A stretch of DNA of 64,000 nucleotides from Rickettsiales bacterium (GTDB lineage: Bacteria; Pseudomonadota; Alphaproteobacteria; Rickettsiales; JAJNBL01), in contig JAJNBL010000002.1 of assembly GCA_021156175.1 (NCBI GenBank), positions 197,029-261,028 of the forward strand, read 5' to 3'. Shown here piece after piece: positions 1,424-35,095 of the stretch. Under the pieces are notes generated by a model. The model was given only the letters and a program-made list of their open reading frames with translations. It had not been told where the DNA came from and searched no databases. The first letter of the stretch is position 1. Every line of letters starts with the position of its first letter. Position numbers and translations under genes: made by a program.

Positions 1424-1436
1424 CGATCTAAATATA

Positions 1437-1558: not shown

Positions 1559-1565
1559 GATTGCC

Positions 1566-2629: not shown

Positions 2630-2631
2630 GT

Positions 2632-2758
2632 TATAGCATTTTCGCTTTAAGTGTAGACCAGGAGCGCAAGGTGAGGAGGCCGTAAGCGTAGTCAATCTAC
2701 GTGCAGATCGACAAATCCGATGCACGACGACGTATACACTTAATTGGAGAATGCTATA
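2632..2758. repeat. palindromic intergenic element, family B (copy B1)
   Basis: 127 bp. Terminal inverted repeats TATAGCATT (2632-2640) and AATGCTATA (2750-2758). The central ~60 nt (2664-2723) is nearly identical to the reverse complement of 46952-47079. Confidence 0.8.
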
Positions 2759-2759
2759 A

Positions 2760-15549: not shown

Positions 15550-15671
15550 AATACCTCTTAAAGACCGCGCCTTTCACGCGAAAACGGGGAAGGGGTCCCG
15601 ACAACGTTATGATCGTATCAGAGTGGCCTTAGCGAATGATTAACAGGCAAAGCGGGGAGCAGAGCGTTTTA

Positions 15672-16961
15672 CTATGCTGCTTCATTATAAAGCGTAATGT
15701 CGCCCGCCAGATATAATGATCCACAGACAATAATACGCCCTGGCGCATCTTTATACAATGTGGTTAAGGTAGAGATTGCATGTTCCACACTTTCAGCCGC
15801 AGTTGCTTTTATTCCCATTTCATGCGCCTCGAGTGCCACACGCTCCGCAGGATAGGCCGAAGGCTCCGATTCCACCCGCATGCCGCATAAATGTGTTATA
15901 CGGTGGCTAAACTGTTTCAGGAATTTTTTGATATCGCGTCCCTTGGTCATACCAAGAATACAATAAAGCGGCCGGTCTTTCCATTCTTCGGCCATATAAG
16001 CAATTAGCTCCGCCCCCGCCTCGTTATGCGCACCATCGAGCCATAATTCCCATCCTTCAGGGAGTAATTTCTTGAGTGCGCCTGACGTAATTGCCTCAAA
16101 CCGCGCAGGCCAGGTGGCTGTCCGAATCCCTTCCGCAATCGCTTCATCAGAAATCGCGAAACCTTCGGCACATTGTACCGCCGCCACGGCATTGCCCGCA
16201 TTGATATACTGATGCGGCCCAAGCAGCGACGGCTGCGGCAATAAGAGTTTTCCCTCTGTTTCCGCATAATACCAGCGGTCATCCGGCAACCGCTCCACGT
16301 TCCATTCATGCCCATAACGAAACAACGGCGCACCGACATTCACGGCTTCTTCTTCCACTGTCCGCATGCCTTCAGGGAATTGATAACTCACTACACACGG
16401 AACATCTTTTTTAAGGATGCCCGCCTTCTCCCGCATAATGCATTCAATCGTTGGTCCTAAATACTCCATATGGTCATAGGACACCGAACTGATTACGCTT
16501 ACCAGCGGACGGTCAATCACGTTCGTTGCATCCAGTCTTCCGCCCATCCCGGTCTCCAGCAGCAACACATCCGCCGGCACTTTCGCGAACGCGAGATACG
16601 CCATTGCGGTTGTTCCTTCAAAAAATGTCACGGGAATATCATCTTTGGCTGCAATTCGGCAGGTTTCTGCCATTTCATAAAGCATCTCATCGCTGATCTC
16701 TGATCCCGCCAGCACGATTCGCTCATTAAAGCGCACCAGATGCGGCGAGGTGTAACGATGAACGCGATACCCTGCCGCTTCAAAGATCGCTTTTAAAAAT
16801 GCAAGCGTCGAGCCTTTGCCATTGGTTCCGGCAACATGAATCACAGGGGGAATGCGATGGTGCGGATTACCTAAGCGCTTCAAGAGTTCGGTAATACGAT
16901 CGAGGTCAAAATCAATCGGACGGTTCCCAAGCGGGATGGGCCAATGGGGCATTTTCATCAT
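15672..16961 (-). CDS. folC: bifunctional folylpolyglutamate synthase / dihydrofolate synthase
   Basis: 429 aa; Mur-ligase P-loop VAGTNGKGST. Confidence 0.9.
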   Translation of the reverse strand: MMKMPHWPIPLGNRPIDFDLDRITELLKRLGNPHHRIPPVIHVAGTNGKGSTLAFLKAIFEAAGYRVHRYTSPHLVRFNERIVLAGSEISDEMLYEMAETCRIAAKDDIPVTFFEGTTAMAYLAFAKVPADVLLLETGMGGRLDATNVIDRPLVSVISSVSYDHMEYLGPTIECIMREKAGILKKDVPCVVSYQFPEGMRTVEEEAVNVGAPLFRYGHEWNVERLPDDRWYYAETEGKLLLPQPSLLGPHQYINAGNAVAAVQCAEGFAISDEAIAEGIRTATWPARFEAITSGALKKLLPEGWELWLDGAHNEAGAELIAYMAEEWKDRPLYCILGMTKGRDIKKFLKQFSHRITHLCGMRVESEPSAYPAERVALEAHEMGIKATAAESVEHAISTLTTLYKDAPGRIIVCGSLYLAGDITLYNEAA

Positions 16962-17016
16962 GGGAGACCTCTTGTCTTACGAATGGAACTGAGGTTTAAA
17001 TTTCCTAACACCTGAC

Positions 17017-17095
17017 GAAAAAAGGAGATTTCAAGACCTGTAGCGGAGCGTACCTTAAGGTACGTAAGCAACAGCAGCTTAAAAATCTCCTTTTT
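17017..17095. repeat. family A short form (copy A3)
   Basis: Core GAGCGTACCTTAAGGTACGTAAGC (17047-17069), flanked by GAAAAAAGGAGATTT ... AAATCTCCTTTTT arms. Confidence 0.7.
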
Positions 17096-17115
17096 GCAGT
17101 CCGTGACAGTAGAAT

Positions 17116-18519
17116 TTAAATATGAATCGCTTTGGAGAAGGCTGCTAGCGCTGCTTCTTTCACGGCTTCCGACAAATCCGGATGCGAGTGGCAGGTCCGC
17201 GCGATATCTTCCGAAGAGGCTTTATATTCCATCCCCAGCACCAATTCCGCCAAAAGCACACCGGCTTGCGGGCCAATAATATGTGCACCTAAAATCTGAT
17301 CGGTCTTTTTGCACGCGAGGATCTTCACGAATCCATCCGTATCCACGTTTGCACGCGCGCGGCTGTTCGCCAAGAAGGGGAACTTGCCCACATTATACTC
17401 GATCCCGGCTTCTTTAAGCTGCTCTTCGGTTTTACCGACCGCAGCGACTTCCGGATGGGTATAAATCACGCCTGGGACTTTATCATAATCCACGTGCCCT
17501 TTCTGACCCGCCATGATCTCTACCGCTGCAATACCATCTTCTTCGGCTTTATGTGCAAGCATCGGACCTGCAATTACGTCTCCGATCGCATAAATACCTT
17601 TCACATTGGTCTCGAAATGGTGATCAACGTTAATCCGGCCACGTTCGTCCTTTTGTACTCCCGCAGCTTCCAAGCCCAAACCATTTGTAAATGCCCTACG
17701 GCCAATCGCCACCAACACTACATCGGCTTTTAAGTTCTCTGCCGCTCCGCCTTTGGCAGGCTCTAATGTCAAGGTAACCGATTTCCCTGCCACTTTCGCA
17801 CCCGTCACTTTTGTGCCAAGCTTAAATATAACGCCTTGTTTTTCAAGAATTTTTTTGAATTCTTTACTCACTTCACCGTCCGATGTTGGCGCGATACGAT
17901 CCAAATATTCCACGACTGTTACTTCCGATCCCAAACGACGCCATACCGAGCCAAGCTCCAGGCCAATCACGCCCCCGCCAATCACCACCAATTTCTTTGG
18001 CACTTCCGATAACTCCAGCGCGCCGGTCGAAGACACAATCCGGTCTTCGTCAATCTCTACACCCGGGAGCGGCATCACTTCCGAACCCGTCGCAATCAGG
18101 ATGCGTTTGGTTTTAATAATATCCGATGCACCTTTCTCACCTTTCACTTCGACTTCGCCTGCGGATTTAATAATCCCGGTGCCTTTCAAATAGGTAATTT
18201 TGTTTTTCTTGAATAAGCCTTCGATGCCTTTGGTGAGGTTGGAAACTACGTTATCTTTGTTCCCCATCATCGCTTTAAGATCAAGCTCTAAGCCTTTGAT
18301 TTTAATCCCATGCCCTGCAAAATGCTTGCTCGCATCTTCAAATTTTTCTGAAGAATTCAATAGCGCTTTTGACGGAATACAGCCCACATTCAAGCACGTT
18401 CCACCCAATACTCCACGTTTCTCCACGCACGCGACATTCATCCCCAATTGCGCCGCTTTAATTGCTGCAACATAACCGCCAGGGCCACCGCCAATTACTA
18501 CGAGATCAAATGTCGTCAT
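17116..18519 (-). CDS. lpdA: dihydrolipoyl dehydrogenase (E3)
   Basis: 467 aa; FAD motif GGGPGGY and redox-active [13 protein letters not shown]. Confidence 0.96.
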
Positions 18520-18600
18520 TTTAGAGTACCTTTCTTTAGAACATTTTCACAATGCTTCTGAAATGTATCTCAGAAGCATTGTCTTACTATATCAATAAAA

Positions 18601-18616
18601 TGTTTCACGTGAAACA
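18601..18616. other. parS centromere-like site
   Basis: TGTTTCACGTGAAACA, a perfect 16-bp palindrome matching the parS consensus; extended palindrome 18599-18618. Confidence 0.85.
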
Positions 18617-18624
18617 TTCCGACA

Positions 18625-18652
18625 AGAAAAAGGCCGGATCTCTCCAGCCTCT
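18625..18652 (-). terminator. rho-independent terminator after sucB
   Basis: On the minus strand, AGGCTGGA/TCCGGCCT stem (one mismatch) followed by TTTTT. Confidence 0.5.
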
Positions 18653-18671
18653 TTTAAAACCTTTGTGCAAA

Positions 18672-19883
18672 TTACATATCCAAAAGCAAACGTTGCGGAT
18701 CTTCAATGCACTCTTTCACGCGCACAAGGAACGTCACCGCTTCCTTGCCATCAATAATCCGGTGATCATAGGACAGCGCAATATACATCATTGGACGCGC
18801 TTCGATTTTATTCCCTTCCACGACCACAGGACGCATCTGGGTTTTATGCATACCCAAAATTCCTGATTGTGGTGGGTTGATGATCGGCGTAGACATCAAT
18901 GAGCCGTACACACCGCCGTTAGAAACGGTGAAGGTGCCACCGGTCATATCTTCCATGGTCAATTTGCCATCGCGTGCTTTTTTGCCGTAATCGTTGATTG
19001 TTTTCTCAACGCCCGCAAAGGAAAGATGATCCGCGTTACGAACAACAGGTACCACAAGACCTTGCTCGGTTCCTACTGCCACGCCAATATCATAATGATT
19101 CTTGTATACGAGATCATCGCCATCAATTTCTGCATTCACCGCAGGAATTTCTTTAAGCGCATTCACGGCTGCTTTTACGAAGAAAGACATAAAGCCCAGC
19201 TTCACGCCATGCTTTTTCTCAAACGCATCTTTATATTGATTGCGCAGCGCCATGACGTTCGTCATATCAATTTCGTTAAACGTGGTGAGGATTGCTGCGG
19301 TATTTTGCGACTCTTTCAAGCGCTCTGCGATACGCTTACGAAGGCGGGTCATTTTTACACGCTCTTCGCGCGGGCCAGAAGTCACCGCCGCAGAAATATG
19401 CGCCACACTACCACCATCAATGGCTTTTAGCACATCGCCTTTGGTCACGCGACCATCTTTACCAGAGCCTGGAATCGATGCAGGATTGATGCCCTGCTCC
19501 GCGGCAAGCTTACGCACCGCAGGTGGGTTGTTATCCGCGGGAAGCGATACAGACACCGCCACAGGAGCGGGTGCAAATGCGGGAGCCGCTGGTTTTTGCG
19601 CTTTCGCATTGCTGTTTGCGACTTTCACTTCGCCTTCTTCAATCAGGCCAAGAAGCGTACCAACGCTCACCGTTTCGCCTTCTTTCACATTAATTTGAGA
19701 AAGCACGCCGCTGGCCGGAGCATTCACTTCCAAGGTAACTTTATCGGTCTCTAATTCGACCAAAATTTCATCGGCATTCACCGATTCACCAGCAGATTTA
19801 AACCACTTTGCAATGGTTGCTTCCGTAACCGATTCGCCTAAGGATGGAACCAGAATTTTTGCACTCATGTTGCTATGCTCCAA
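18672..19883 (-). CDS. sucB: dihydrolipoamide succinyltransferase (E2 of the 2-oxoglutarate dehydrogenase complex)
   Basis: 403 aa; lipoyl motif [11 protein letters not shown]; catalytic SYDHRIIDG. Confidence 0.95.
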
Positions 19884-19887
19884 TTAA

Positions 19888-22794
19888 TTATTTTACAGTT
19901 AGTGCTTGGTCGATCAGCGCTTTTTGCTCCACGACGTGTAATTTCATATAGCCTGCCGCAGGAGAAGCCGCCTCTTTGCGTCCCACATAGGAAGCACGTT
20001 TGCCTTTAATGCCTGCCGCGATCAACGCTTCTTCGATTTTTGGCTCCACAAAGAACCAGCCTGCCATATTTTTTGGCTCTTCCTGGCACCATACGATTTC
20101 AGCGTTTTTGTATTTTTGCACTTCTCGTACGACTTCTGCCGCCGGGAATGGATAAAACTGCTCCATACGCACGAGCGCTACATCTTGAACGCCACGCTTC
20201 TCGCGCTCCTCTAACAAGTCATAATATACTTTTCCGCTACAGAATACCACACGCTTCACTTTCGCATCTGCGGCAATCGTATGCGTTTCGCCGATAATTG
20301 GCTCAAAGCTTGTACCTTCTGCGAAATCTTTAAGCGCAGATACCGCGAGCTTATGACGCAGCAATGATTTTGGTGTTGCGATAATTAATGGCTTACGGAA
20401 TTTCCGGTGCAATTGGCGGCGCAGAATATGGTAGTAAGACGCAGGCGTCGTACAATTTGCCACCTGAATATTATCTTCCGCACAAGACTGCAAGAAGCGC
20501 TCAATCCGCGCCGAGCTATGCTCAGGCCCTTGGCCTTCATAACCATGCGGGAGGAGCATTACCAGGCCGCTCATACGCAACCATTTCACTTCGCCTGAGG
20601 TGATGAACTGGTCAATCATGACCTGTGCACCGTTTACGAAATCCCCGAACTGGCCTTCCCACAGGGTAAGCGCATTCGGCTCCGCCAAGCTATAACCATA
20701 TTCGAAACCCAGCACCGCAAACTCGGAGAGGTTACTATCCACGATTTCCAGGCTCGCCTGCTTTGGATCAAGCTGTGCAAGCGGCGTATAGCGCGCTTCC
20801 GTCTTCTGATCAATGATCGAGGAATGGCGATGCGAGAATGTCCCGCGCACGGCATCCTGGCCCGTTAAACGCACCGGATGGCCTTCTAACATCAAAGAAC
20901 CAAACGCCAGTGCTTCACCGGTTGCCCAGTCAAAGCCCCGTCCGGTTTTGAACATTTCCTGCTTCGCTTCAAACTGGCGGACGATTTTCGGATTCACATT
21001 GAAATCCTGCGGAATCGCGCTAATGACTTTTCCAATTTTTTCTAAGGTCGCTTTCTTCACACCGGTTTCAGATTTTTCTGCCTTTCCGCCACGCTTAGAT
21101 TGCTCTAACCCCGCCCATTTCCCTTCCAGGAAATCTGCTTTCTCAGGCTTGAATTTCTCTGCTTTCTTGCGCTCTTCTTCAAGGAAGGCTTTGAAATCTT
21201 CAACTTTCTTCTCGAACTCCGCCCGGGATATCACGCCTTCCGCTATGAGTTTTTCGCCATAAATGGACATCGGACGCTTATGCTCGCTGATTTCCGTATA
21301 CATCACCGGCTGGGTGAAGAACGGCTCATCCCCTTCGTTATGGCCATAACGGCGATAACAAATGATATCAAGCACGATATCTTTTTTGAATTCGGCACGG
21401 AATTCCGCCGCGATTTGCGCAACAAACGCCACCGCCTCAGGATCATCCCCGTTCACGTGGAAAATCGGTGCCTGAACGATCTTCGCCACTTCCGTTGGGT
21501 ATGGGCTAAGACGTGCATTTTTCGGGCTAGTCGTAAAGCCGATCTGGTTATTCACGATCACATGGATCGTACCGCCGGTCGTATAGCCTTTCAAATCGCC
21601 AAGAGAGAGCGTCTCCGCCACCACACCTTGTCCCGCAAATGCCGCATCACCATGGAGCAATACGCCCACAACTTTCGAACGGCTCGTATCGTTATGCTGA
21701 TTTTGCTTCGCACGCACGCGCCCCACAACAACGGGATTAACGGCCTCCAAGTGCGAAGGGTTCGGGCTTAAAGAAAGATGGATCGTATTGCCGTTAAAAT
21801 CTCGGTCCGCCGATTTACCTAAATGGTATTTCACGTCGCCTGCAATATCCATACTTGCAGGATGCGCCAGCTCACCCATAAATTCAGAAATCATCGAGAA
21901 ATATGGCTTTTGCACAACAGACGTCAGGACGTTCAAACGTCCACGGTGCGGCATCCCTATCACCGCTTCTTTCACACCATGTTCACCGGATTTTGCCAGC
22001 GCCATATCCATCGCAACAATCGTGCTTTCGCCGCCCTCGATAGAGAAGCGTTTGGTGCCTGGGAATTTCACATGCAGGAATTGCTCGAAGGTCTCAGCCT
22101 TCATGATTTTTTCAAAAATTTCGCGTTTGGCTTCCGCAGAGAAATTAAACTGCCCCTGCACAGGCTCCAGCCGGGCTTCAATCCACTCACGCTCCGCCAG
22201 CGACTCGATATGCATGAATTCCGCACCGATGGTCGCGCAATAGGTCCGCCTTAAGGTCGCCAAGATCTCGCGCACCGTGGCGCTCTCATGGCCCAACACC
22301 CCACCCAAATAGATTGGACGATCATAATCAGCTTCCGAGAAACCATAGGTGGCGGGATTAAGGTCTGGATGGCCTTTGCCGCCTTCTAAATTAAGCGGAT
22401 CAAGCTTTGCCATCAAATGGCCGCGCATGCGGTAGGCACGGACAAGCATAAGCGCTTTGATACTGTCGCTCGCACTTGACGCCGCTTCATTTTTCGGCGC
22501 TTTTGCCGCTGCCGCGGCGGCAGCTTTCGCTTCTTCAGGATCACGATAACCTACAATCCGTGGCGCTTTCTTTGCCCAGGATGGCCCTTGCGTTCCCCGC
22601 AAAACAGCCTGGATATCGTCGCCCAAGTCACGGAAAAAATGTTGCCATTTTTCATCCACCGACGAAGGGTCTTGAACATAGCGGTTATACAGTTCTTCGA
22701 TGAAGACGGTATTCCCACCAAAAAGATACGTGGTTGCATTGAGACTATCGGCCATAGCAGATTCCTCGGGTTTTACCTTTGCATTCATGTTCAC
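19888..22794 (-). CDS. sucA: 2-oxoglutarate dehydrogenase E1 component
   Basis: 968 aa; sits between sucD and sucB; ThDP-enzyme motifs. The start may be the internal Met at 22758 (MADSLNA). Confidence 0.95.
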   Translation of the reverse strand: MNMNAKVKPEESAMADSLNATTYLFGGNTVFIEELYNRYVQDPSSVDEKWQHFFRDLGDDIQAVLRGTQGPSWAKKAPRIVGYRDPEEAKAAAAAAAKAPKNEAASSASDSIKALMLVRAYRMRGHLMAKLDPLNLEGGKGHPDLNPATYGFSEADYDRPIYLGGVLGHESATVREILATLRRTYCATIGAEFMHIESLAEREWIEARLEPVQGQFNFSAEAKREIFEKIMKAETFEQFLHVKFPGTKRFSIEGGESTIVAMDMALAKSGEHGVKEAVIGMPHRGRLNVLTSVVQKPYFSMISEFMGELAHPASMDIAGDVKYHLGKSADRDFNGNTIHLSLSPNPSHLEAVNPVVVGRVRAKQNQHNDTSRSKVVGVLLHGDAAFAGQGVVAETLSLGDLKGYTTGGTIHVIVNNQIGFTTSPKNARLSPYPTEVAKIVQAPIFHVNGDDPEAVAFVAQIAAEFRAEFKKDIVLDIICYRRYGHNEGDEPFFTQPVMYTEISEHKRPMSIYGEKLIAEGVISRAEFEKKVEDFKAFLEEERKKAEKFKPEKADFLEGKWAGLEQSKRGGKAEKSETGVKKATLEKIGKVISAIPQDFNVNPKIVRQFEAKQEMFKTGRGFDWATGEALAFGSLMLEGHPVRLTGQDAVRGTFSHRHSSIIDQKTEARYTPLAQLDPKQASLEIVDSNLSEFAVLGFEYGYSLAEPNALTLWEGQFGDFVNGAQVMIDQFITSGEVKWLRMSGLVMLLPHGYEGQGPEHSSARIERFLQSCAEDNIQVANCTTPASYYHILRRQLHRKFRKPLIIATPKSLLRHKLAVSALKDFAEGTSFEPIIGETHTIAADAKVKRVVFCSGKVYYDLLEEREKRGVQDVALVRMEQFYPFPAAEVVREVQKYKNAEIVWCQEEPKNMAGWFFVEPKIEEALIAAGIKGKRASYVGRKEAASPAAGYMKLHVVEQKALIDQALTVK

Positions 22795-22828
22795 AATCCT
22801 GATTCAACATGCTTTCTTTGTGTATAGA

Positions 22829-23704
22829 TTATGCCGCAAGCAGATTTTTCATGGTTTTGCCAAGCGCTGCAGGCGAATCTGCAACCACGATCCCCGCGCG
22901 CTTCATCGCTTCGATTTTATCTTCTGCTCCACCTTTACCGCCAGCAACAATCGCGCCCGCGTGGCCCATACGCTTGCCTGGAGGTGCGGTACGTCCCGCA
23001 ATAAACCCTACTACTGGCTTCTTCACTTTGGATGTACGGAGGAAATCTGCCGCCTCTTCCTCTGCGCTACCGCCAATTTCTCCAATCATGATCATCGCTT
23101 GGGTTTCATCGTCCGCCAAGAATAATTCGAGCACATCGATGAAGTTCGTCCCATTTACAGGATCACCACCGATCCCTACGCAGCTTGATTGGCCTAAGCC
23201 CGCCTGCGTAGTTTGATGCACGGCTTCATAGGTCAATGTACCAGAGCGCGACACAATCCCGATTCTGCCTTTCTGGTGAATATGGCCCGGCATAATCCCG
23301 ATTTTGCATTCGCCTGGCGTAATCACGCCCGGGCAGTTTGGCCCAACCAGACGGGTTTTAGAGCCCGACAGCGCACGCTTTACGCGCACCATGTCTTGGA
23401 CCGGAATCCCTTCGGTAATGCAGATCGCAAGCTCGATCTGAGCATCAATTGCTTCTAAAATTGCATCCGCAGCGAACGGAGGCGGCACATAAATCACGGA
23501 CGCATTCGCGCCGGTTTTCGATTTCGCTTCCGCCACCGTGTTGAATACTGGCAAGTCTAAATGTTTTTCGCCACCTTTACCCGGAGTCACACCACCAACC
23601 ATTTTGGTGCCATAGGCAATCGCTTGTTCTGAGTGAAAAGTTCCTTGGGAGCCGGTAAATCCCTGGCAAATAACTTTGGTATTTTTATTGACGAGAATAG
23701 CCAT
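22829..23704 (-). CDS. sucD: succinyl-CoA synthetase alpha subunit
   Basis: 291 aa; [27 protein letters not shown] and SRSGTLTYE. Confidence 0.96.
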
Positions 23705-24903
23705 TACGCTGCCTCCCTTTGTACGGCTTTCACAATCTTTTCTGCTGCATCCTCAAGATTATCTGCAGAAATGACGCGAAGGCCTGATTTGTTGATAATG
23801 TCTTTGCCCAATTGCACGTTGGTTCCTTCTAGGCGAACAACCAGCGGCACATGGAGTGATACTTCTTTCGCCGCAGCGATAATCCCTTCCGCGATAATAT
23901 CGCAGCGCATGATTCCGCCGAAAATATTGACGAGAATTCCTTCAACGCTCGGATCCGAAAGAATAATTTTAAACGCTTTGGTCACGCGCTCTTTCGTCGC
24001 GCCACCGCCCACATCGAGGAAGTTTGCAGGCCCGCCGCCTTTAAGCTTAATGATGTCCATGGTTGCCATCGCAAGACCGGCACCATTGACCATGCAGCCG
24101 ATATTCCCGTCCATTTTCACATAGCTCAACTCATGGCGCTTCGCCTCGAGTTCAGACGGCTCTTCTTCCGACACATCGCGCATTTCTTCGATATCTTTGT
24201 GACGGAAAAGCGCGTTATCATCAAAATCAAATTTCGCATCAAGCGCGATAAAATCCCCTTCCGCGGTTTCCACCAGCGGGTTGATCTCCAGCTGAGAGGC
24301 ATCCGTATCGGTGAATGCACGATAAAGCGCGGCCACGAATTTCGAAAATTTCTTCACTTGATCGCCTGAAAGACCTAAGCCATAAGCAAGCTTACGAGTA
24401 TGGAAGCCTTGAATGCCGGTTACGGGATCAATAGAGACGCTAAAAAGCTTTTCCGGGTGTGAGTGCGCCACTTCTTCGATATCCATTCCGCCTTCGGTGG
24501 AGGCAATGAAAGTAATACGGCTATTTTCGCGGTTTACAAGCGCGCTTAAATAGTATTCTTTCGCGATATTGGAACCTTCTTCAATATAGACGCGATTCAC
24601 TTGCTTGCCTTCCGGGCCCGTCTGGATTGTCTCCAGCACCTCACCGAGCATTTCTTTCGCGTTTTCCCATACTTCCGCAGGAGATTTCACGACGCGTACG
24701 CCGCCCTTACCTTTCGGATTATTTTTAAAACGTCCTTTACCCCGGCCACCGGCATGGATCTGGGATTTCACCACCAATACCGGCACCCCCAACTCCTGAG
24801 CCGCGGTTTTCGCGTCATCCGCAGTAAATGCCACTTTTCCGTTAGGGACGGGCACTTGGTAGCGCCGCAAGATTTCTTTTGCCTGGTATTCATGAATATA
24901 CAT
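23704..24903 (-). CDS. sucC: succinyl-CoA synthetase beta subunit
   Basis: 399 aa; [16 protein letters not shown]-terminus, ATP-grasp domain. Confidence 0.96.
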
Positions 24904-24936
24904 GGACAGTTCCTTTTATGCTTCTTATTCAATCAG

Positions 24937-25887
<951 letters not shown>

Positions 25888-25973
25888 CTACCTCGTATGC
25901 AGAGTGGTTAAATTCATTCGGCAGCGCCTCTTTCTCTTAAGGAAAAAACGCTAGCCCCACTCCGTATATAACC

Positions 25974-27419
25974 TTACGAATTCATTGCGTCAAAGAATTC
26001 GTTGTTATCCTTGGTCGCTTTCATCTTGCCGATGAGGAATTCCATCGCATCCAGACTTCCCATCGGGGAAAGAATACGGCGAAGCATCCAGCTCTTTGTA
26101 AGGATTTCCTTATCAAGTAGCAATTCTTCTTTCCGTGTTCCGGATTTGGTGACATCAATCGCCGGGAAGACCCGCTTATCTGCGATTTTCCGATCAAGGA
26201 TAATCTCGGCGTTACCTGTACCTTTGAATTCCTCGAAGATTACCTCATCCATGCGTGAGCCGGTTTCAATCAGAGCGGTCGCGATAATGGTCAGTGATCC
26301 ACCATGCTCGATATTTCGTGCAGCACCGAAAAAGCGCTTAGGGCGTTGCAGCGCATTGGCATCCACACCCCCGGTTAATACTTTCCCAGACGATGGCACC
26401 ACGGTGTTATACGCACGAGCCAGACGGGTTATGGAATCCAGCAGGATTACCACGTCTTTCTTGTGTTCTACCAAACGCTTGGCTTTTTCAATCACCATTT
26501 CCGCTAATTGTACGTGGCGGGTCGCTGGCTCATCAAAGGTCGAGCTAACGACTTCGCCTTTCACGGAACGCGCCATATCCGTCACTTCCTCGGGGCGCTC
26601 ATCAATCAAGAGAACGATTAGCTCCACTTCCGGATGGTTTGCAGTAATCGCATGGGCTATATTTTGCATTAGCATGGTTTTACCGGTACGTGGCGGCGCA
26701 ACAATCAATGCCCGCTGGCCTTTACCGAGCGGCGCTACGAGTTCAATCACCCGTGTGCTAAAATCGGTTGCAGTCGGGTTCGGGAATTCGAGTTTCAGTT
26801 TTTGTTGTGGATAGAGTGGGGTCAGGTTATCGAAGTTAATCCGGTGACGGACTTCTTCCACAGGACCACCATTGATGCTGGTCACTTTTAGGAGCGCGAA
26901 ATAACGCTCACCTTTTTTCGGAGAACGAATTTGCCCATCGACCGTATCACCAGTACGAAGCCCAAAACGGCGCACCTGGCTTGGAGAAACATAGATATCA
27001 TCCGGGCCTGCACAATAGTTCGCTTCCGGTGAACGTAAGAATCCAAAACCGTCTTGAAGTACTTCGAGCACCCCCTCGCCGGTAATGATTCCGCCTTGTT
27101 CGGCGGATTTTTTCAAAATCGCGAAGATCATCTCCTGCTTTAACAAGCCGCCGACATTCTCCACTTTATATTCTTCAGCAATCGCAAGCAGCTCATCCGG
27201 TGCTTTGCGTTTGAGTTCTTTAATGTTCAGTTCTTTACCTGATCCTGGCAAGGGCGCTTCGCCATTGGCGCTCATAGCTTCATTCGCCTCTTCATCGTTG
27301 TCGCTCATCCCCATATCCTGCATCTGAGAAGAAGGGGCTTGCTCATCTCGTGAACGGCGGTGATGGGTGGAGTTAGAATGGTGCTGTCTTTCAGGAAAAT
27401 CTTTGTTAGGTCTGTGCAT
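25974..27419 (-). CDS. rho: transcription termination factor Rho, with about 60 aa of N-terminal low-complexity extension
   Basis: 481 aa; Walker A APPRTGKT; RNA-binding domain GFGFLR. The start could be a later Met. Confidence 0.95.
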
Positions 27420-27662
27420 AGAAACCTTAGGCTTAATGATTTATATTAAGGTGAGGGAATATTCTTGCTGCTTTTTAAAAGCGCTCCAACCGGATATTAT
27501 TCCTGCAATCCATGCGTATATTCACGGGTGTAGGGGATAATAAAAAAGGAGGATAATAACAAGAAGGACCTTTGCGGGACGCTGGTTTCACGCCCACGTG
27601 TCCTATTTGAGCTACCAGATAGTAATCTACGTGTCAAACAAAAAGATACGCTTTAGCTCTAA

Positions 27663-28103
27663 TTAGAATGGCTTCACCACCGCCAATACCACAATAATGA
27701 TCATCAAAACTGCCGGTATCTCATTGATAATACGGAAAAATTTCTCCGATTTCGTATTTTTCCCTTGAGCAAAGGATTTTCGGTATTTTGAGAACATTCC
27801 ATGGAGTCCAAACATCCCCAACAGCAATAGCGCCTTCGCATGGAACCACTTAAGCTCACCCGGATAACCCGCATGGGTAATATAAATCAGCATTAGACCA
27901 AAAATAAGGCTCAGAATCATCGCGGGATTGATAATTACCCGCATGAGTTTGCGTTCCATCAGCTGGAACCGTTGATCCTCTTTGGAACCCACTTTCACTT
28001 GGGTGTGATACACAAACAGCCTTGGTAAATAGAGCATTCCCGCCATCCAGGAAATGACCGAAATAATATGTAAGGCTTTGATCCATAAGTAATATTCTGT
28101 CAT
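27663..28103 (-). CDS. hemJ: protoporphyrinogen IX oxidase HemJ
   Basis: The track ORF runs to 28136. I prefer the ATG at 28103 (MTEYYLWIKALH...), one nucleotide beyond the hemH stop. Signature ALHIISVISWMAGMLYLPRLFVYH. Confidence 0.8.
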   Translation of the reverse strand: MTEYYLWIKALHIISVISWMAGMLYLPRLFVYHTQVKVGSKEDQRFQLMERKLMRVIINPAMILSLIFGLMLIYITHAGYPGELKWFHAKALLLLGMFGLHGMFSKYRKSFAQGKNTKSEKFFRIINEIPAVLMIIIVVLAVVKPF

Positions 28104-28104
28104 A

Positions 28105-29139
28105 TTATTCTCCTTTTGCACATACACATTTTCCAAATTCAGCCGGGCAATTGTTGCCTCCTGAAGCTCTGGATATCGGTTTTTCTGAGTCTTTTAATCC
28201 CAAACATAGCGACGCCAATGACGCTATAAAATGCTCATTCACCCCAAGCGCTGGAACCCGCGCATAATAGGGTATTCCCACTTCTTCGGCTTTTTTCCGG
28301 TATTCAATATCCAGCTCCACGAGCGTCTCAGAATGTTCCGACACAAACGCCACCGGCACCACCACCACCGGAACATTATCCTTCCCCGCCCGCGCTATCT
28401 CATCCCCAAGTGATGGGCCTATCCAAGCCAGCGGCCCTACCCGGCTTTGATAACAAATCGCATAATCAAGTTTCTCGATATTTAAGCGTTTCACGATAGC
28501 TGCAACGGTTTGTTCCACCTGCCATTGATATGGATCTCCGGCTTTGACGATTTTTTCTGGCAAACCATGGGCAGAAAATAAAATGCGTGGATTTCCCTCT
28601 TTTTTTGTTTCCTCATAGACCGGCCGAAGTAATGTTTCATACGCTTCTATAAACGCAGGTTCTTGTGGATAACACCCTATCGCCTGGGTAGGAACATCCA
28701 GTCTTTGTGCTTTTGCTTGCTCGTTCCAATCGTCCAAAGAGGATCCGGTCGTAGTAGTCGAAAATTGGGGATAGAGTGGAAGGAGTATCACCCGATCCGG
28801 CTGGTAGGTCTTCACCTGCTTCACCACTTCTTTGCTCATCGGATGCCAATACCGCATCGAGACAAACACACGATAACCTGTTCCCAATTTTGCTTCTAAG
28901 CTTTGCGCTTGCGCTTGGGTGAGTGGCAAGATCGGCGATCTTCCTCCCATTTCCTGATAAATTGCTTGGGCTTTTTGATTCCGTCCGCGGGAAATTATTT
29001 TTGCCAGCAAAAACCGAAAAGGTTGAGGAAGTGCAATGATCGCTTTGTCGCTAAAAAGATTGAAGAGAAACGGCTTCACTGATTCCAGACAATCAGGCCC
29101 ACCTAAATTAAATAAAACTACCGCAACACGTGCATTCAT
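28105..29139 (-). CDS. hemH: ferrochelatase
   Basis: 344 aa; VVLFNLGGPD N-terminus; SAHGLP motif. Confidence 0.93.
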   Translation of the reverse strand: MNARVAVVLFNLGGPDCLESVKPFLFNLFSDKAIIALPQPFRFLLAKIISRGRNQKAQAIYQEMGGRSPILPLTQAQAQSLEAKLGTGYRVFVSMRYWHPMSKEVVKQVKTYQPDRVILLPLYPQFSTTTTGSSLDDWNEQAKAQRLDVPTQAIGCYPQEPAFIEAYETLLRPVYEETKKEGNPRILFSAHGLPEKIVKAGDPYQWQVEQTVAAIVKRLNIEKLDYAICYQSRVGPLAWIGPSLGDEIARAGKDNVPVVVVPVAFVSEHSETLVELDIEYRKKAEEVGIPYYARVPALGVNEHFIASLASLCLGLKDSEKPISRASGGNNCPAEFGKCVCAKGE

Positions 29140-30191
29140 GCCGCTTGTTTCCTTTTCCAGCTTCGCACGGTTTCGACCAACAGCTCAACATTTTCGATCG
29201 GCGTCGTCGGTAGAATCCCATGCCCTAAATTCACGATAAATGGCCCGTGTTTTAATGCTTCTAGCAATGAAATAATCTGATCCCGAAGCATCCCCTTTTC
29301 CGCAAATAACATCACCGGATCCAAATTCCCTTGCACCGGTTTCTTTGTTTGGAGCTGCTTTGCTGCCCATATCAGAGGAATGGTGGTGTCGAGACCTACT
29401 GCATCCACGCCTGTTTGCTTGAGATACGCTTCGTAATAAAACCCAGCGCCGCGTGGGAATCCGATGATAGGAATCGCAGGATGCCGTAATTTAAGCTTTT
29501 CTACAATTTTGCGCGTCGGTTCAATTACCCATTGCGAAAACGCTTCTTCGGGTAATACACCCGCCCAGGAATCAAACAATTGCACCGTTTCCGCACCGGC
29601 TTGAATCTGAAGCGATAAATGTTCGACCGTCGCTTCTATCAAAATATCGATCAATTTTCCAAATGCAGACGGTGTGGCATAAGCCCAACGTTTGCTTTCC
29701 AAAAATTCTTTGCTGCTGCCGCCCTCGAGCATATAGGTTGCTACCGTCCAAGGGCTTCCTGCGAAACCAATGAGGGTGGTGTGTGTGGGTAATTGTTGTT
29801 TGATTTCTGCGACTGCTTCATAAACGGGGGAAAGATGGGAAGCGATACGTTCAGGCTTTAATCCTGCTAATGCTTTTTCCGATGTGATTTTTTCGAGTAT
29901 CGGCCCTTTTTTCTCTTCAAAGGTCACATGCATGCCGAGTGCATCGGGAATCACCAAAATATCGGAAAATAAAATCGCTGCATCAAAACCAAAGCGACGA
30001 ATAGGCTGCAACGTCACTTCAGCCGCGAGTTTCGGTGTATAGCACATCTGTAAGAAACTGGAGACATCTTTTCTGATTTCACGATATTCCGGTAAATATC
30101 GTCCGGCTTGACGCATCAACCATAACGGAGGAGTATCAAGTTGTTTCCCCTTCAATGTCTCTAATAATGGCTTTCCAGTCTGCTTTACCAT
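29136..30191 (-). CDS. hemE: uroporphyrinogen decarboxylase
   Basis: 351 aa; PPLWLMRQAGRYLPEYR signature. Confidence 0.95.
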   Translation of the reverse strand: MVKQTGKPLLETLKGKQLDTPPLWLMRQAGRYLPEYREIRKDVSSFLQMCYTPKLAAEVTLQPIRRFGFDAAILFSDILVIPDALGMHVTFEEKKGPILEKITSEKALAGLKPERIASHLSPVYEAVAEIKQQLPTHTTLIGFAGSPWTVATYMLEGGSSKEFLESKRWAYATPSAFGKLIDILIEATVEHLSLQIQAGAETVQLFDSWAGVLPEEAFSQWVIEPTRKIVEKLKLRHPAIPIIGFPRGAGFYYEAYLKQTGVDAVGLDTTIPLIWAAKQLQTKKPVQGNLDPVMLFAEKGMLRDQIISLLEALKHGPFIVNLGHGILPTTPIENVELLVETVRSWKRKQAA

Positions 30192-30650
30192 GATGACACT
30201 CTACAATTTCCCACGTCTTTTTGAAAAGCCCTTATACATTTTTTTTCACGAGAAGTATCCTACTATCTAATAAGTATTTATTAGAGAAATAAAGTAGAGG
30301 TAATAGTTGTCCTTCCGGATATGGGGATACAATAGTTTACACGGAGTTTTCCACATAGTGATGGGAGTTGAAAATAGTTGGGGATAATTATGGGGATATA
30401 GAGTATAAGCTATTGTTATTGTATTAAAAATAATAGGGTTTATATATATAGTTATAAAGGACATTACTACTTACTCCCATTATCCCGATCCCTACTTAGC
30501 AACTTATCCTCAGGGGATAAATCATGAATCACTTGTGGTATTTTTGTTGAGAAAACCCCTTTAGCTGCGTAAGATCACTTTCGCACAGAGTTATGCAAGC
30601 GGTTATCCTCACGCTTATCCACAATTTTAGAAATAAATGATTTAACACCT
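30192..30650. other. candidate chromosomal replication origin (oriC)
   Basis: 459-bp non-coding gap between hemE and the RP001/PDRP homologue. Perfect DnaA box TTATCCACA at 30615-30623; at least 7 one- or two-mismatch boxes; AT-rich core about 30400-30470. Confidence 0.65.
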
Positions 30651-31490
30651 ATGACAACTCAGACCGTCCACTTACATCTAGTTTCCGATTCGACAGGAGA
30701 AACGGTCAGCAGCGTATCCCGTGCCGCGTTAGCCCAATTTGAAGGGATAGAAGTCGAGGAACATGTATGGTCACTGGTGCGTACCTCCGGCCAAATGCAA
30801 AAGGTTTTAGACCATGTTCGTGATAATCCCGGCATTGTCATGTATACCATTACACAAAAAAAGCTTCGGGAAGAACTTAAACAAGGCTGTGCCAAGTTAA
30901 ATGTCTTGTGTATACCAATATTATCAAGAGTTATCAAAGACTTACAAGCATATTTTGGACAGAAAGTTTCCTCGAGCCGTCCTGGAAAACAACATGAAAT
31001 GGATGAAGATTATTTCGAACGCGTGGAAGCGATTAACTTTGCTTTAGCGCATGATGATGGCCAAATGACCTGGGATTTAGAAGAAGCCGATGTTGTCGTG
31101 ATAGGTGTATCGCGGACGTCCAAATCGCCGACCTGTGTGTATCTCGCCTATCGCGGCCATCGCGCGGCAAATATTCCCTTTGTTCCTATTGTCCCCTTCC
31201 CGATTGAGCCAGAGCAGGTGAAAAATACGCTTGTGGTGGGATTAACTATCAGCGCGGAACGGCTTGTCCAAATTCGCAAAAGCCGCTTACTGTCGCTTAA
31301 TGAAGACCGCGAAACGGAATATGTGGATATCGAATCCATCCGCGCGGAAATCGCGGAAGCGCGCAAACTCTTCCAGAAATTCCGCTGCCCAGTGATTGAT
31401 GTGACGCGCAAATCTGTTGAGGAAACCGCGGCGACCATTATTCAGCATATCCAAGAACGCAGAGAGCAGAAAAAAGAGGTCATTTCATGA
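30651..31490 (+). CDS. pyruvate,phosphate dikinase / PEP synthase regulatory protein (DUF299; RP001 homologue)
   Basis: 279 aa; HLVSDSTGET N-terminus and P-loop GVSRTSKSPT. Confidence 0.88.
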   Translation: MTTQTVHLHLVSDSTGETVSSVSRAALAQFEGIEVEEHVWSLVRTSGQMQKVLDHVRDNPGIVMYTITQKKLREELKQGCAKLNVLCIPILSRVIKDLQAYFGQKVSSSRPGKQHEMDEDYFERVEAINFALAHDDGQMTWDLEEADVVVIGVSRTSKSPTCVYLAYRGHRAANIPFVPIVPFPIEPEQVKNTLVVGLTISAERLVQIRKSRLLSLNEDRETEYVDIESIRAEIAEARKLFQKFRCPVIDVTRKSVEETAATIIQHIQERREQKKEVIS

Positions 31491-32317
31491 TTACTGGAAA
31501 TGCCCTTATTGCAGGAGTCATCGGATATCCTGTTCGCCATTCGCTATCTCCACGTCTGCATAATTACTGGCTGGAGTACTATAAATTATCGGGTGCCTAT
31601 ATCCCGCTTGAAATCGCGCCGGAATACCTTGCTTCCTTTATTCGTACCCTCCCGCTTATTGGCAATTGGCGAGGCTTGAATGTCACCGTTCCCCATAAAG
31701 AAGCGGTATTAGGATTAATGGATGAAGTCGATCCTGTCGCTAAACGTATTGGTGCAGTAAATACGGTGATTATCCGCGAAGGAAAACTCTTTGGGACGAA
31801 TACCGATGCCTATGGTTTTATCGCTAACCTTAAAGAACAGGCGCCCCATTTCAGTTTCCACGGAAAAACGGCATTGGTATTAGGTGCAGGTGGTGCTGCA
31901 CGGGCCGTATGTGCCGGCCTCCAAGATGCAGGCATCAAAGAAATTATCCTCGCCAACCGCACGATTGCCAGAGCGGAAGAAGTGGCTAATGCTTTAGGTG
32001 GAAACATCCGTGTGCATACCTGGGAACAGGTGCAAAAAATTCTTCCTGACATAGGGTTGCTTGTGAATACCACAACACTTGGAATGGAAGGCAAGCCGGC
32101 GCTTAATTTTTCGCTCGTCTCCCTGCCCCGCGAGGCGCTGGTATCCGATATTGTCTATGTCCCGCGTGTCACATCACTACTGGAAACCGCCAAAGCCCAA
32201 GGTAATCCGATTGTGACAGGATTAGGGATGCTGTTCCATCAAGCCGTTCCCGGTTTTGAAGCTTGGTTTGGGGTAAGGCCGGAGGTAGACCCCGCCCTTG
32301 AGGTGCTTATAAGATAA
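31487..32317 (+). CDS. aroE: shikimate dehydrogenase
   Basis: 276 aa; SLSPRLHN and NVTVPHK motifs; GAGGAARA Rossmann motif; 4-nt overlap with the upstream gene. Confidence 0.92.
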   Translation: MITGNALIAGVIGYPVRHSLSPRLHNYWLEYYKLSGAYIPLEIAPEYLASFIRTLPLIGNWRGLNVTVPHKEAVLGLMDEVDPVAKRIGAVNTVIIREGKLFGTNTDAYGFIANLKEQAPHFSFHGKTALVLGAGGAARAVCAGLQDAGIKEIILANRTIARAEEVANALGGNIRVHTWEQVQKILPDIGLLVNTTTLGMEGKPALNFSLVSLPREALVSDIVYVPRVTSLLETAKAQGNPIVTGLGMLFHQAVPGFEAWFGVRPEVDPALEVLIR

Positions 32318-32323
32318 GGGGTT

Positions 32324-32950
32324 TTACATCCCCACCCCTTGAAACCACCGTTCTAACTCCAGCGCATCCATAATAAGCTCCACCGAAAAAGCCGCCAATA
32401 TCATTCCCATCACTTTAACCAGGATCGCCGCTCCGTTCTGCCCAATCACCTTTAAGATATGGTCCGAGCAGATCATCATGAGATAGGTAATAGAGAGGAC
32501 AATTGCCATCATCCCGGTAGTAATCGCCTGTTGTGGCAAGCTAAACGCATTATTATCGGTCAGCATAATCACCGCCATAATCGAACCCGGCGCTGCAATG
32601 ACGGGAACCGCCAAAGGGAATACCGCCATATCGTGATTACCGTTGGTTTCGGCTCCCCAGTCGGTGGCAAGGATATTCTCAAAAATCATCTTGAGTCCGA
32701 AAATAAGAAGAATAATGCCGCCCGCAATTTCAAGCGCAATGAGCTTGATGCCCATGCCCGTTAAAATAATTTGTCCGGCGATGATAGAGACAAAAAGAAT
32801 GATAAAGGCATAGACCACGGATTTACGAGCGATCCGCCGCCGTTCTGCATAATCCTTGGAGGCAGTCAGCGCAGCAAAAATGGCAAGGGCACCGATGGGA
32901 TCTACGGTGGTCCATATCAGAAGAAAATCTCTGACAGTCTGATCGAACAT
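32324..32950 (-). CDS. MarC-family integral membrane protein
   Basis: Polytopic membrane ORF. I chose the internal Met (MFDQTVRDFLL) as the start; the 36-codon upstream extension looks non-genic. Confidence 0.7.
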   Translation of the reverse strand: MFDQTVRDFLLIWTTVDPIGALAIFAALTASKDYAERRRIARKSVVYAFIILFVSIIAGQIILTGMGIKLIALEIAGGIILLIFGLKMIFENILATDWGAETNGNHDMAVFPLAVPVIAAPGSIMAVIMLTDNNAFSLPQQAITTGMMAIVLSITYLMMICSDHILKVIGQNGAAILVKVMGMILAAFSVELIMDALELERWFQGVGM

Positions 32951-33228
32951 AGCATTTCCTGGGATGAGCTTACTAGAATACACCTTTGGAAGTATTTGTA
33001 CATATTTTAACGTATGCACTGAGAAATTTCTAACGTGTAGAACCGTACGGAATCCCAAGAGAAAGTTGCATAATTACCCTTTCAGGTTGTATAAAAATGC
33101 CATACGGTAGAATTGTGAATAATAATTATTCGTAGGATGTAACGTTAAAAGGAGAGTGAGCGGTTACTCGAGCAAAAGCAGACAAAAAAGAAACAGAAGA
33201 AAAACTGAAAAACGACAAGCTGGAGCTC

Positions 33229-33426
33229 GTGGAGGTAGTAGTAAAGGATCATAAAAATATTTCAAAAGAAGAGGCAAAAGTGCATATAGAAGATAAAATA
33301 GAAAAGGAACAAGAAAAGCTAGAAAAGGCGACTCAAACCTGGGCAGAAAAAAATCCAAACAGAGCTAATCTAAGAGCAAGCAACCGATGGGTATCTCACG
33401 CAAGCGACAGATGTAATATACTCTAG
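33229..33426 (+). CDS. hypothetical small Lys/Glu-rich protein (start uncertain; GTG 33157 or GTG 33229)
   Basis: Short ORF in an A-rich segment, followed by a strong terminator. No family recognised. Confidence 0.3.
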   Translation: MEVVVKDHKNISKEEAKVHIEDKIEKEQEKLEKATQTWAEKNPNRANLRASNRWVSHASDRCNIL

Positions 33427-33442
33427 TTTTTTAAGTGCTGGA

Positions 33443-33475
33443 ATTGGCCGGGGCTTATCCTCCGGCCAATTTTTA
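33443..33475 (+). terminator. rho-independent terminator
   Basis: ATTGGCCGG / CCGGCCAAT 9-bp stem followed by TTTT. Confidence 0.7.
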
Positions 33476-33553
33476 TTGGGATCGACAGAGAATAAAAAAA
33501 GCCCCATTCAAGGCTTTTACGCGTGTGGGTGCACGGTAGTTTATGGGAAGAAA

Positions 33554-33626
33554 TGGCTGGGGCGCCAGGATTGGCTTCGCCGTATCTCGGCCTGTTGGCC
33601 TCGTGGTCGAACGTCGTTCGAACCTG
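33554..33626 (-). pseudogene. partial, interrupted copy of the tRNA-Gln 3' end
   Basis: 33554-33572 is identical to the 19 nt at 33688-33706 (acceptor 3' strand, CCA and T-stem). TTCGAACCTG at 33617-33626 repeats the T-loop and stem. About 44 nt of unrelated sequence lies in between. Confidence 0.6.
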
Positions 33627-33687
33627 ACACTTAAAATCACTTAATAAAACAAGGCGCATTGTTATGCCTATGCCATGTTTTATTAAG

Positions 33688-33761
33688 TGGCTGGGGCGCC
33701 AGGATTCGAACCTGGGGTGGCGGGATCAAAACCCGCTGCCTTACCGCTTGGCTACGCCCCA
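33688..33761 (-). tRNA. tRNA-Gln (anticodon UUG), CCA encoded
   Basis: The reverse complement TGGGGCGTAGCCAAGCGGTAAGGCAGCGGGTTTTGATCCCGCCACCCCAGGTTCGAATCCTGGCGCCCCAGCCA folds as a cloverleaf. It closely parallels the E. coli tRNA-Gln(UUG) sequence as I recall it. Confidence 0.93.
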
Positions 33762-33846
33762 ACAAATGACGCAACTTACGGGGAAGCCCCGCGCGTGCGG
33801 GAGCATTACTACACCACCTTTTGGAAAGTTGCAAGCGCTTCACGCA

Positions 33847-34179
33847 CTATTTTATGCTCTTTTTAACCCACGAAAGAAAGTCGGGGTTTCCCTCTTCGAT
33901 AGGCAAGGTGACAATACAAGGGAATTCATAGGAATGCAGCGCTTTGACGGCCTCTATTGCAAGCTTCGCCTTATCCTTCGTCGTTTTGGCAAAAATCAAG
34001 GTTTCGGAGGCTTCCTGGAGTACTCCTTCCCAGTGATACAGGGAGGTCATCCCGGGCACAATATTCACGCAAGCCACAAGCTTTTTCTCAAGTAAGCGCT
34101 GGCCAATGGCCCGGGCCTCCTTGACAGAGCTTGCGGTCATATAGAGAAATACTAAGGAAGTAGATTCCATAACAACCAA
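33847..34179 (-). CDS. cutA: divalent-cation tolerance protein CutA
   Basis: 110 aa; LVACVNI...YHWEG...E motif pattern of the CutA1 family. Confidence 0.85.
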   Translation of the reverse strand: MVVMESTSLVFLYMTASSVKEARAIGQRLLEKKLVACVNIVPGMTSLYHWEGVLQEASETLIFAKTTKDKAKLAIEAVKALHSYEFPCIVTLPIEEGNPDFLSWVKKSIK

Positions 34180-34294
34180 TTATCTTTCAGGTACTTAACG
34201 TTATTTTAATATTAAAAGCGGAGAGTGGAAAACAGTAACGACTGCCTAAGATAAGCAGTATAACCAAATCAGAATGACATACAAGGAGAGGCAT

Positions 34295-34894
34295 ATGTTT
34301 GGCCGTAAACCGACCCACCCCGCGCAAGGCGCATCCGAAACCGGACAACGGGCGGGCCATGACGAAGAACAGAATGCCGCGGAAGCCCTCTTGCTACTCG
34401 AAGAAGAAATTATGGTCGATGGTATAGAAGAGACTGCATTAATGGCGCCCGCTCATGCCGCGTCAGAGAGGCTCCGGAGTTTCACGAAAGTAGAAGCTCC
34501 GATTGAGCGCGTGCTCACGGTTGGGTTTGAGACAGCCTTAAAAGGCGATATTTCGGGCTGCGATCGTTTAAAGATCGAAGGCCATGCGGAAGTGAATGTT
34601 ACCGAGATTGCCATTATGGAAATCAACGAAACCGGCACCTTCAAAGGCACGGCGATTGTTGGAACGGCGCTCATCGGCGGGATATTTTCAGGTGATTTGA
34701 CCGTAACCGAGCGTTTGGTGATACTCGAAACGGGCCGTGTGACCGGTACAATAAGCTACCATAGCCTTGAAATTCAGCCGGGCGGCAAAATTGCTGGTAC
34801 GATTGATGTAATTCCGGATGAAGCCGTTGCAGGAGAGCCTAGCCGCCAACGTGCATCTGGCCATCGCATACAAGAAGAACATTATTCGGCGTAA
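34295..34894 (+). CDS. bactofilin (polymer-forming cytoskeletal protein)
   Basis: The track ORF starts at 34274. I prefer the ATG at 34295 (AAGGAG 6 nt upstream), giving an N-terminus MFGRKP like the bactofilin membrane-targeting motif. Beta-helical repeats (IEGHAEVNV..., LTVTERLVILETGRVTGTISYHSLEIQPGGKIAGTI). Confidence 0.82.
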   Translation: MFGRKPTHPAQGASETGQRAGHDEEQNAAEALLLLEEEIMVDGIEETALMAPAHAASERLRSFTKVEAPIERVLTVGFETALKGDISGCDRLKIEGHAEVNVTEIAIMEINETGTFKGTAIVGTALIGGIFSGDLTVTERLVILETGRVTGTISYHSLEIQPGGKIAGTIDVIPDEAVAGEPSRQRASGHRIQEEHYSA

Positions 34895-34970: not shown

Positions 34971-35095
34971 TTAAATTCTTCTTCCCAAAATACCGAAAAA
35001 TAGATAAACAGCTTAACCACCCTTTAAACGCTAATATGTTAGAATATTTTTTAGCGGTTCTTGACATGATGCAAAGAATCTCACGGGAGATGGTA

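Follow-up and report, generated by a model that had tools for sequence, protein, structure and literature searches.

The chromosomal origin of Caulobacter crescentus, Cori, has been mapped experimentally between hemE and CC0001, a gene of the DUF299 family, and the origin proposed for Rickettsia prowazekii lies between RP885 (hemE) and RP001 (PMC1914354, PMC6393856). Origins predicted for Rickettsiales (Brassinga 2002; Ioannidis 2007) likewise have hemE and a COG1806 gene as flanks and an A+T content above the genome average; those of Rickettsia measure 383-395 bp, and the number of CtrA sites per Rickettsiales origin varies from 0 to 7, several origins having none or one (PMC1914354). In the basal unwinding system of Bacillus subtilis, which is made up of DnaA boxes 6/7 together with DnaA-trios, the trio consensus is 3'-GAT-5' and the trios are located on the 5' tail adjoining the boxes (PMC8287927).

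The window, that is, the whole 64-kb stretch of DNA analysed here, contains an intergenic gap of 459 bp at 30192-30650 with the same boundaries. The gap had been put forward in the original prediction as a candidate oriC, and the limits and size given there are exact, since the flanking ORFs end at 30191 and begin at 30651. On the left it is bounded by hemE, encoding uroporphyrinogen decarboxylase (29136-30191, minus strand; TIGR01464, E = 8e-127), and on the right by the divergent gene for PDRP, the pyruvate phosphate dikinase/PEP synthase regulator (30651-31490, plus strand; NF003742, E = 6.5e-101; PF03618), a member of DUF299/COG1806 and homologue of RP001 and CC0001. The identification of these flanks, followed by aroE, was borne out by the family matches, and the PDRP protein is identical to one of a MAG labelled 'Rickettsiales bacterium'. 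The gene order rho-hemJ-hemH-hemE / gap / PDRP-aroE is that of the mapped Caulobacter origin, with rho and the heme genes on one side (PMC6393856, PMC1914354). The G+C content of the gap is 34%, compared with ~49% for the window (A+T 66% versus ~51%), and, as in Cori, the gap is richer in A+T than its surroundings. The genome has a much higher G+C content (~49%), in which it differs from the case of the predicted Rickettsia and other Rickettsiales origins.

On the basis of its DnaA box cluster, the local skew minimum, the presence of the weakest DNA of the window, its flanking genes and its conservation in relatives, the whole hemE/PDRP intergenic region is predicted to be, very probably, an uncultured alphaproteobacterium's chromosomal oriC and to belong to the hemE-linked type, of which the Caulobacter origin was the first to be mapped. 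Every independent computed line (boxes, skew, duplex stability, flanks and 68 relatives) supported the candidate. An oriC at this position is an ordinary example of a type of origin already mapped, and is unsurprising to specialists. Among the features by which hemE-linked origins were recognised by Ioannidis 2007, after Brassinga 2002 (PMC1914354), the gap has the position, the DnaA boxes and the A+T content, and lacks the CtrA and IHF sites. Its description as the largest non-coding gap of the window is valid only if a gene is present at 33059-33687; otherwise that stretch, which is 629 bp long and lies between a NAAT transporter gene and tRNA-Gln, is the larger one. It contains small ORFs only, and those that were scanned gave no family match. 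A search of the origin gap against Rfam found no match, tRNA-Gln being the sole RNA of the window. A 65-aa ORF within the gap (30267-30464, minus strand) has no family match and was deemed spurious. In the origin gap of a relative a 99-aa 'protein' without a Pfam match has been called (L008, 4686-4985; L009, 133-432), and this call and the 65-aa ORF both probably represent origin DNA mistaken for a gene.

The genes to the left of the gap are hemE, hemH, hemJ, rho, mdh, sucC, sucD, sucA, sucB, lpdA, folC and an unassigned gene. These 12 genes (14746-30191) are all on the minus strand and point away from the gap, as the original prediction had it, and forks moving leftwards from the gap would be co-directional with each of them, from hemE to 14746. 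Further to the right are mnmE, mnmG, rsmG, parA (57204-58037), parB (57926-58972) and lysS; the group mnmE-mnmG-rsmG-parA-parB and five perfect parS sites are at most ~28 kb from the gap. One parS copy, TGTTTCACGTGAAACA, is at 18601-18616, and the others start at 47898, 54532, 56559 and 58975. Their reported number within about 30 kb is correct, all five being perfect 16-nt palindromes situated 11.6-28.4 kb from the gap, and together they mark an origin-proximal partition domain. The dnaA gene is absent from the 64-kb window.

The cumulative G-C minimum of the 64-kb window is located at 30267, inside the gap, and is a local minimum within the contig of ~798 kb. To the left of the gap, the plus-strand skew is -0.049 in plus-strand genes and -0.128 in minus-strand genes, while to the right the corresponding values are +0.106 and -0.007. 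Because genes split by side and strand still show the switch, it is independent of gene orientation, and represents a replication-type asymmetry on top of the transcription effect. The GC-skew switch of a bacterial oriC is therefore found at the locus, as local evidence.

The gap contains nine DnaA boxes, comprising one perfect box, four with one mismatch and four with two mismatches, the last being counted only if the ATCC core was kept; all the motifs listed in the original prediction were found in their places. In the left half, box GTATCCCCA (30322-30330, minus strand, two mismatches) points to hemE and anchors the conserved hemE-side module discussed below. It is followed by TTTTCCACA (30347-30355, plus strand, one mismatch) and by a tandem pair with a 3-bp gap, consisting of TTATCCCCA (30379-30387, minus strand, one mismatch), which points to hemE, and ATATCCCCA (30391-30399, minus strand, two mismatches); the motif TGGGGATA occurs at 30322, 30379 and 30391. 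In the right half, TTATCCCGA (30480-30488, plus strand, two mismatches) points to PDRP, and TTATCCTCA (30504-30512, plus strand, one mismatch) is met by the converging box TTATCCCCT (30512-30520, minus strand, two mismatches), with an overlap of 1 nt, the motif GGGGATAA at 30513-30520 abutting the 30504 box. A second tandem pair with a 3-bp gap is directed to PDRP and is made up of another copy of TTATCCTCA (30603-30611, plus strand, one mismatch) and the perfect box TTATCCACA (30615-30623, plus strand). The left array (30322, 30379, 30391) thus faces hemE and the right array (30480, 30504, 30603, 30615) faces PDRP, with two exceptions: box 30347 points to PDRP although it is in the left half, and box 30512 points to hemE from within the right half. 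In E. coli oriC, DnaA forms opposed left and right sub-complexes, which the two-array layout of the window recalls by analogy.

Boxes with at most one mismatch to TTATCCACA number 24 in the window, five of them in the gap, and the largest such cluster in any other 460-bp stretch of the window has two members; no comparable set of boxes exists in any other 460-bp stretch of the 64 kb. When the 64-kb window was simulated 100 times with a first-order Markov model, five boxes were never reached, and none of 5000 simulations with the composition of the gap itself, for which the mean was 0.18, gave that number either. The hexamer GGGGAT is present in four copies in the gap, compared with 0.14 expected. 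Apart from the perfect box, the boxes are variants of the TTATCC[C/T]CA type, changed at position 7, which probably bind DnaA more weakly. In this respect the gap is similar to Cori, whose boxes are also mostly non-consensus and probably weak, DnaA dependence being a prediction for the window. The TTATNCACA rule used for Rickettsiales origins fits only one box in the gap, a difference from the predicted origins of that group. The designation of the GGGGAT-core boxes as 'G-boxes' was considered and rejected, as the Caulobacter G-boxes are defined by a T-to-G change (PMC4468827) and not by a change at position 7.

Some further observations concern the boxes and their surroundings. The strain variant L007 has four differences in the gap, none of them inside boxes, a count that is not statistically meaningful. 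A 14-nt AT-rich direct repeat with 12/14 identical positions, ATTAGAGAAATAAA and ATTTTAGAAATAAA, is found at 30280-30293 and 30624-30637, one copy being just 5' of the trinucleotide run described below and the other just 3' of the pair that includes the perfect box; in DNA of such A+T richness it may have arisen by chance. The genes flanking the gap also contain DnaA boxes, of which one is perfect and two have a single mismatch, at 28664-28672 (hemH), 29784-29792 (hemE) and 31322-31330 (PDRP). Similar boxes in flanking genes have reportedly been noted for other Rickettsiales origins.

In searches of the gap, CtrA, IHF and CcrM sites were either not found or no more frequent than background. 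No TTAA-N7-TTAA is present in the gap, the loose form TTWW-N7-TTWW has three matches there against 0.5 expected, neither form of the IHF consensus WATCAANNNNTTR is matched, and GANTC occurs once, compared with five times in Cori. The gap differs from Cori in having no TTAA-N7-TTAA and no IHF consensus. The absence of CtrA sites, remarked upon in the original prediction as a possible difference from Caulobacter, holds for the gap, but it is not a notable departure, given the variable and often low counts in Rickettsiales origins (PMC1914354). Absence of consensus CtrA and IHF sites is common among alphaproteobacterial origins. Only two perfect TTAA-N7-TTAA sequences are found in the window, of which one (34195-34209) is ~65 bp upstream of a bactofilin gene (34274-34894) and the other (35013-35027) is inside an L,D-transpeptidase gene.

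Two AT-rich tracts are candidates for the site of unwinding. The central tract (30400-30470) contains the least stable 40-mer of the 64-kb window, at 30417-30456 (-36.9 kcal/mol, compared with a mean of -55.2 and sd of 4.1). The hemE-side tract (30232-30291), at relative position 0.19 of the gap, holds the cumulative G-C minimum, and the 40-mer that ranks third from the bottom in stability within the window (30260-30299) overlaps it. The presence of another AT-rich tract, the central one, distinguishes the gap from Cori.

For comparison with relatives, a PDRP-homologue alignment against species-representative genomes was used, which returned 80 loci; from these and four further contigs, 68 loci with divergent hemE and PDRP genes were obtained. 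They span Rickettsiales-like MAGs, Rhodospirillales, Reyranella, Phenylobacterium and Caulobacter, and their hemE/PDRP gaps have a median length of 430 bp. Single-protein scans of genome contigs and of metagenome contigs found no close relatives, and the closest PDRP among the species-representative genomes is 64% identical. In the case of L001, the closest relative, whose PDRP is 76% identical, the sequence stops 171 nt upstream of PDRP, and the hemE side is missing; it carries boxes but gave no convincing alignment with the window. On the contigs with the nearest PDRP homologues (63-69% identity) the order rho-hemJ-hemH-hemE / PDRP-aroE is kept, and the gaps, estimated at 300-440 bp with 19-31% G+C, contain five to seven boxes at the one-mismatch level, of which one to four are perfect. 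Low-G+C relatives have 3-7 boxes per gap, which is ~4-40 times the density of the flanks, while the gaps of high-G+C Caulobacterales have few E. coli-type boxes, which fits the weak G- and W-boxes of Cori (PMC6393856).

Many of the relatives share a module that, read from hemE to PDRP, consists of an AT-rich tract, a 3-nt periodic run (for example, GGTAGTAGTAGTAG or GTAGTTGTTGTTG), a G+C-rich spacer of small size and then a single box or two boxes abutting each other, of the form TGTGRATnn / nGGGGATTA and pointing to hemE. Runs with at least four of five T[ATG]G triplets are present on the plus strand in 24 of the 68 gaps, compared with one on the minus strand, and all 24 are in the hemE-side quarter of the gap. 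Boxes with the GGGGAT core are ~10-fold enriched in the gaps of relatives and show the same polarity as the window's arrays, pointing to hemE mainly in the left 60% of the gap and to PDRP mainly in the right 40%. The box-proximal triplets of relatives (L012-L091) are often TTG or TGG rather than TAG, so that the outer T and G are kept and the central base varies; this contrasts with the published stress on the central adenine in DnaA-trios.

A comparable module is present in the window, where 30284-30330 reads ...AGAAATA AAG TAG AGG TAA TAG TTG TCCTTCCGGATA TGGGGATAC. The degenerate periodic run (30292-30309, plus strand) resembles DnaA-trios, as 5'-TAG-3' corresponds to 3'-GAT-5', and it is directly followed by the G+C-rich spacer (30310-30321) and the 30322 box. 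This element is close to the modules of the relatives L063 and L043. Searched with a module profile built from 38 relatives and excluding the window, the window gave its best match at 30284-30343 on the plus strand, with a modest score (E = 0.02, 10.8 bits), the next best having E = 0.71; the match provides homology to the relatives' repeat/box module in the same place and on the same strand. By triplet score alone the run is not exceptional, having three of five T[ATG]G, with 31 equally good runs in the window.

The order and polarity of the element match those of the B. subtilis basal unwinding system and of DUE-R1 of E. coli: an AT-rich sequence comes first, then triplets of the 5'-TAG-3' type and a short G+C-rich spacer, and last a box that faces the triplets. 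The arrangement 5'-AT-rich / TAG-type triplets / spacer / box-3', with the box written as TGnGGATA or TGTGGATAA, is that expected for DnaA-trios, whose polarity was deduced from PMC8287927 and E. coli oriC, and is also that of E. coli DUE-R1, for which sequence and polarity were checked and found identical in 5,423 E. coli genomes. The spacer of 15 bp is within the 0-16 bp allowed for the basal unwinding system (PMC8287927). Unlike in B. subtilis, the run in the window is interrupted and the origin is not beside dnaA. The published trio rule (Pelliciari 2021) allows a box at most two mismatches and a spacer of 0-16 bp and needs an uninterrupted series of three or more NAN triplets on the strand 5'-trios...TGTGGATAA-3'; the segment 30292-30330, with two box mismatches, a 15-bp spacer and triplets interrupted by AGG, failed it. 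The gap has only two strict matches, one at 30520-30553 and one at 30480-30511, the latter overlapping another box; the two look trivial and were rejected. In relatives the strict rule is unspecific, being satisfied at the hemE end in 23 of 68 gaps compared with 11-19 in controls. Since the strict matches in the gap are trivial and the rule is unspecific in relatives, a canonical basal unwinding system is not claimed.

The original prediction placed the unwinding element in the central tract at about 30400-30470. This tract is indeed AT-rich and includes the weakest DNA of the window, but as the site of unwinding the hemE-side tract (~30232-30291) is the likelier one, because in 58 of the 68 relatives the least stable 40-mer is in the hemE-side fifth of the gap, followed by the conserved repeat/box module, which the window carries. 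Melting would therefore, on balance, take place in the hemE-side tract; the central tract is a considerable although lesser possibility, and melting elsewhere appears unlikely. An explanation in which the gap is the origin, melting occurs centrally and the hemE-side module is a degenerate relic is less likely than not, but has to be taken seriously. It agrees with the position of the least stable 40-mer between box arrays on both sides, and with the degeneracy of the hemE-side run and its failure under the strict trio rule. It does not agree with the orientation of the boxes on either side of the central tract, which, except for 30512, point away from it; the seeding box of E. coli, like that of the Bacillus-type system, is directed at the DNA that is unwound (PMC8287927); moreover, the weakest DNA is central (0.4-0.6 of the gap) in only 5 of the 68 relatives, and the module profile still detects the hemE-side element in the window. 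The central tract may instead be a bend or spacer between the box arrays, or a region of divergent promoters.

That last function could in principle account for the gap as a whole, if it were an ordinary divergent promoter region in which DnaA acts as a transcription factor or is titrated, the true origin being elsewhere, for example beside dnaA. The gap must hold both promoters, and sigma-70-like hexamers are present at 30424-30458 and 30547-30575; in addition, dnaA is absent from the window, and the skew minimum, computed within 64 kb, is local. The promoter-like matches are at chance level, however (three compared with 2.1 expected), and the gap is where the skew switch coincides with the least stable DNA, with the cluster of parS sites and with a conserved module of unwinding type. 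The mapped alphaproteobacterial origin is, moreover, hemE-linked and not dnaA-linked (PMC1914354, PMC6393856). This explanation is quite improbable. The dense cluster of mostly imperfect boxes would also suit a DnaA-titrating or reactivating locus, similar to datA or DARS, close to the origin but distinct from it. Against such a locus is the position of the cluster, which coincides precisely with the skew switch and with the weakest DNA, within conserved origin synteny; a locus of this kind is considered extremely improbable. We know of no datA- or DARS-like loci described for the group.

Under the preferred interpretation, an origin that melts on its hemE side, DnaA would fill the nine 9-mers, arranged as two opposed arrays, and, starting from the 30322 box, a DnaA oligomer would grow across the G+C-rich spacer as far as the triplets of the plus strand at 30292-30309. 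The adjoining AT tract (~30232-30291) would then melt, and helicases would be loaded there. A more general proposal, which is speculative and rather doubtful at present, is that the hemE-side module (AT tract, (TAG)n(TTG)n run, a spacer resembling GGSC, and weak boxes that abut and have GGGGAT at their end) might be a pan-alphaproteobacterial unwinding element whose box-proximal trios lack the central adenine, and that the lineage of the window might have a DnaA-only origin. Elsewhere, the central adenine of trios is considered essential. If the proposal were true, the gap would represent an origin dependent on DnaA alone, with no CtrA, IHF or CcrM inputs, with an extra central AT tract and with boxes varying at position 7, and would be a natural test case of how trio sequence and box polarity specify melting.

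For the genome to which the window belongs, from an uncultured lineage that is Rickettsiales-like, the prediction fixes coordinate zero, the orientation of the replichores and the partition domain close to the origin, and the position of the origin allows growth rates to be estimated from metagenomic coverage. The comparison of 68 gaps reveals, across Alphaproteobacteria, a markedly strand- and position-specific repeat/box module at the hemE end and an outward-pointing layout of two box arrays. The hemE-side module gives a concrete, testable melting location for alphaproteobacterial origins, which, to our knowledge, have been the subject of experiments in Caulobacter only.

The genes beyond aroE differ between the window and its relatives. 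In L002, L005, L008 and L010 aroE is followed by coaE-dnaQ-secB-Tim44-mltA-Smr, without a called coaE in L010, and coaE-dnaQ occupies this place in many relatives. In the window (comparison region 31487-34179) what comes after aroE is, instead, a gene for a NAAT/MarC transporter, a small unassigned ORF, for which there is a clear terminator hairpin at 33440-33475, tRNA-Gln and cutA; this lineage has therefore undergone a rearrangement of the origin's right flank. A duplicate of the 3' end of tRNA-Gln (33688-33761, minus strand) is present 134 bp downstream of the gene (22 nt, 95% identity; 33551-33572 compared with 33685-33706). The duplicate, located in a gene-poor stretch of 1.2 kb from the NAAT transporter gene to cutA, has the appearance of a tRNA fragment or of a scar of the att type. 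At the left end of the window are the flagellar genes fliE, fliR (Bac_export_1) and flhB (1076-3836), and the Rickettsiales-like organism probably has a flagellum.
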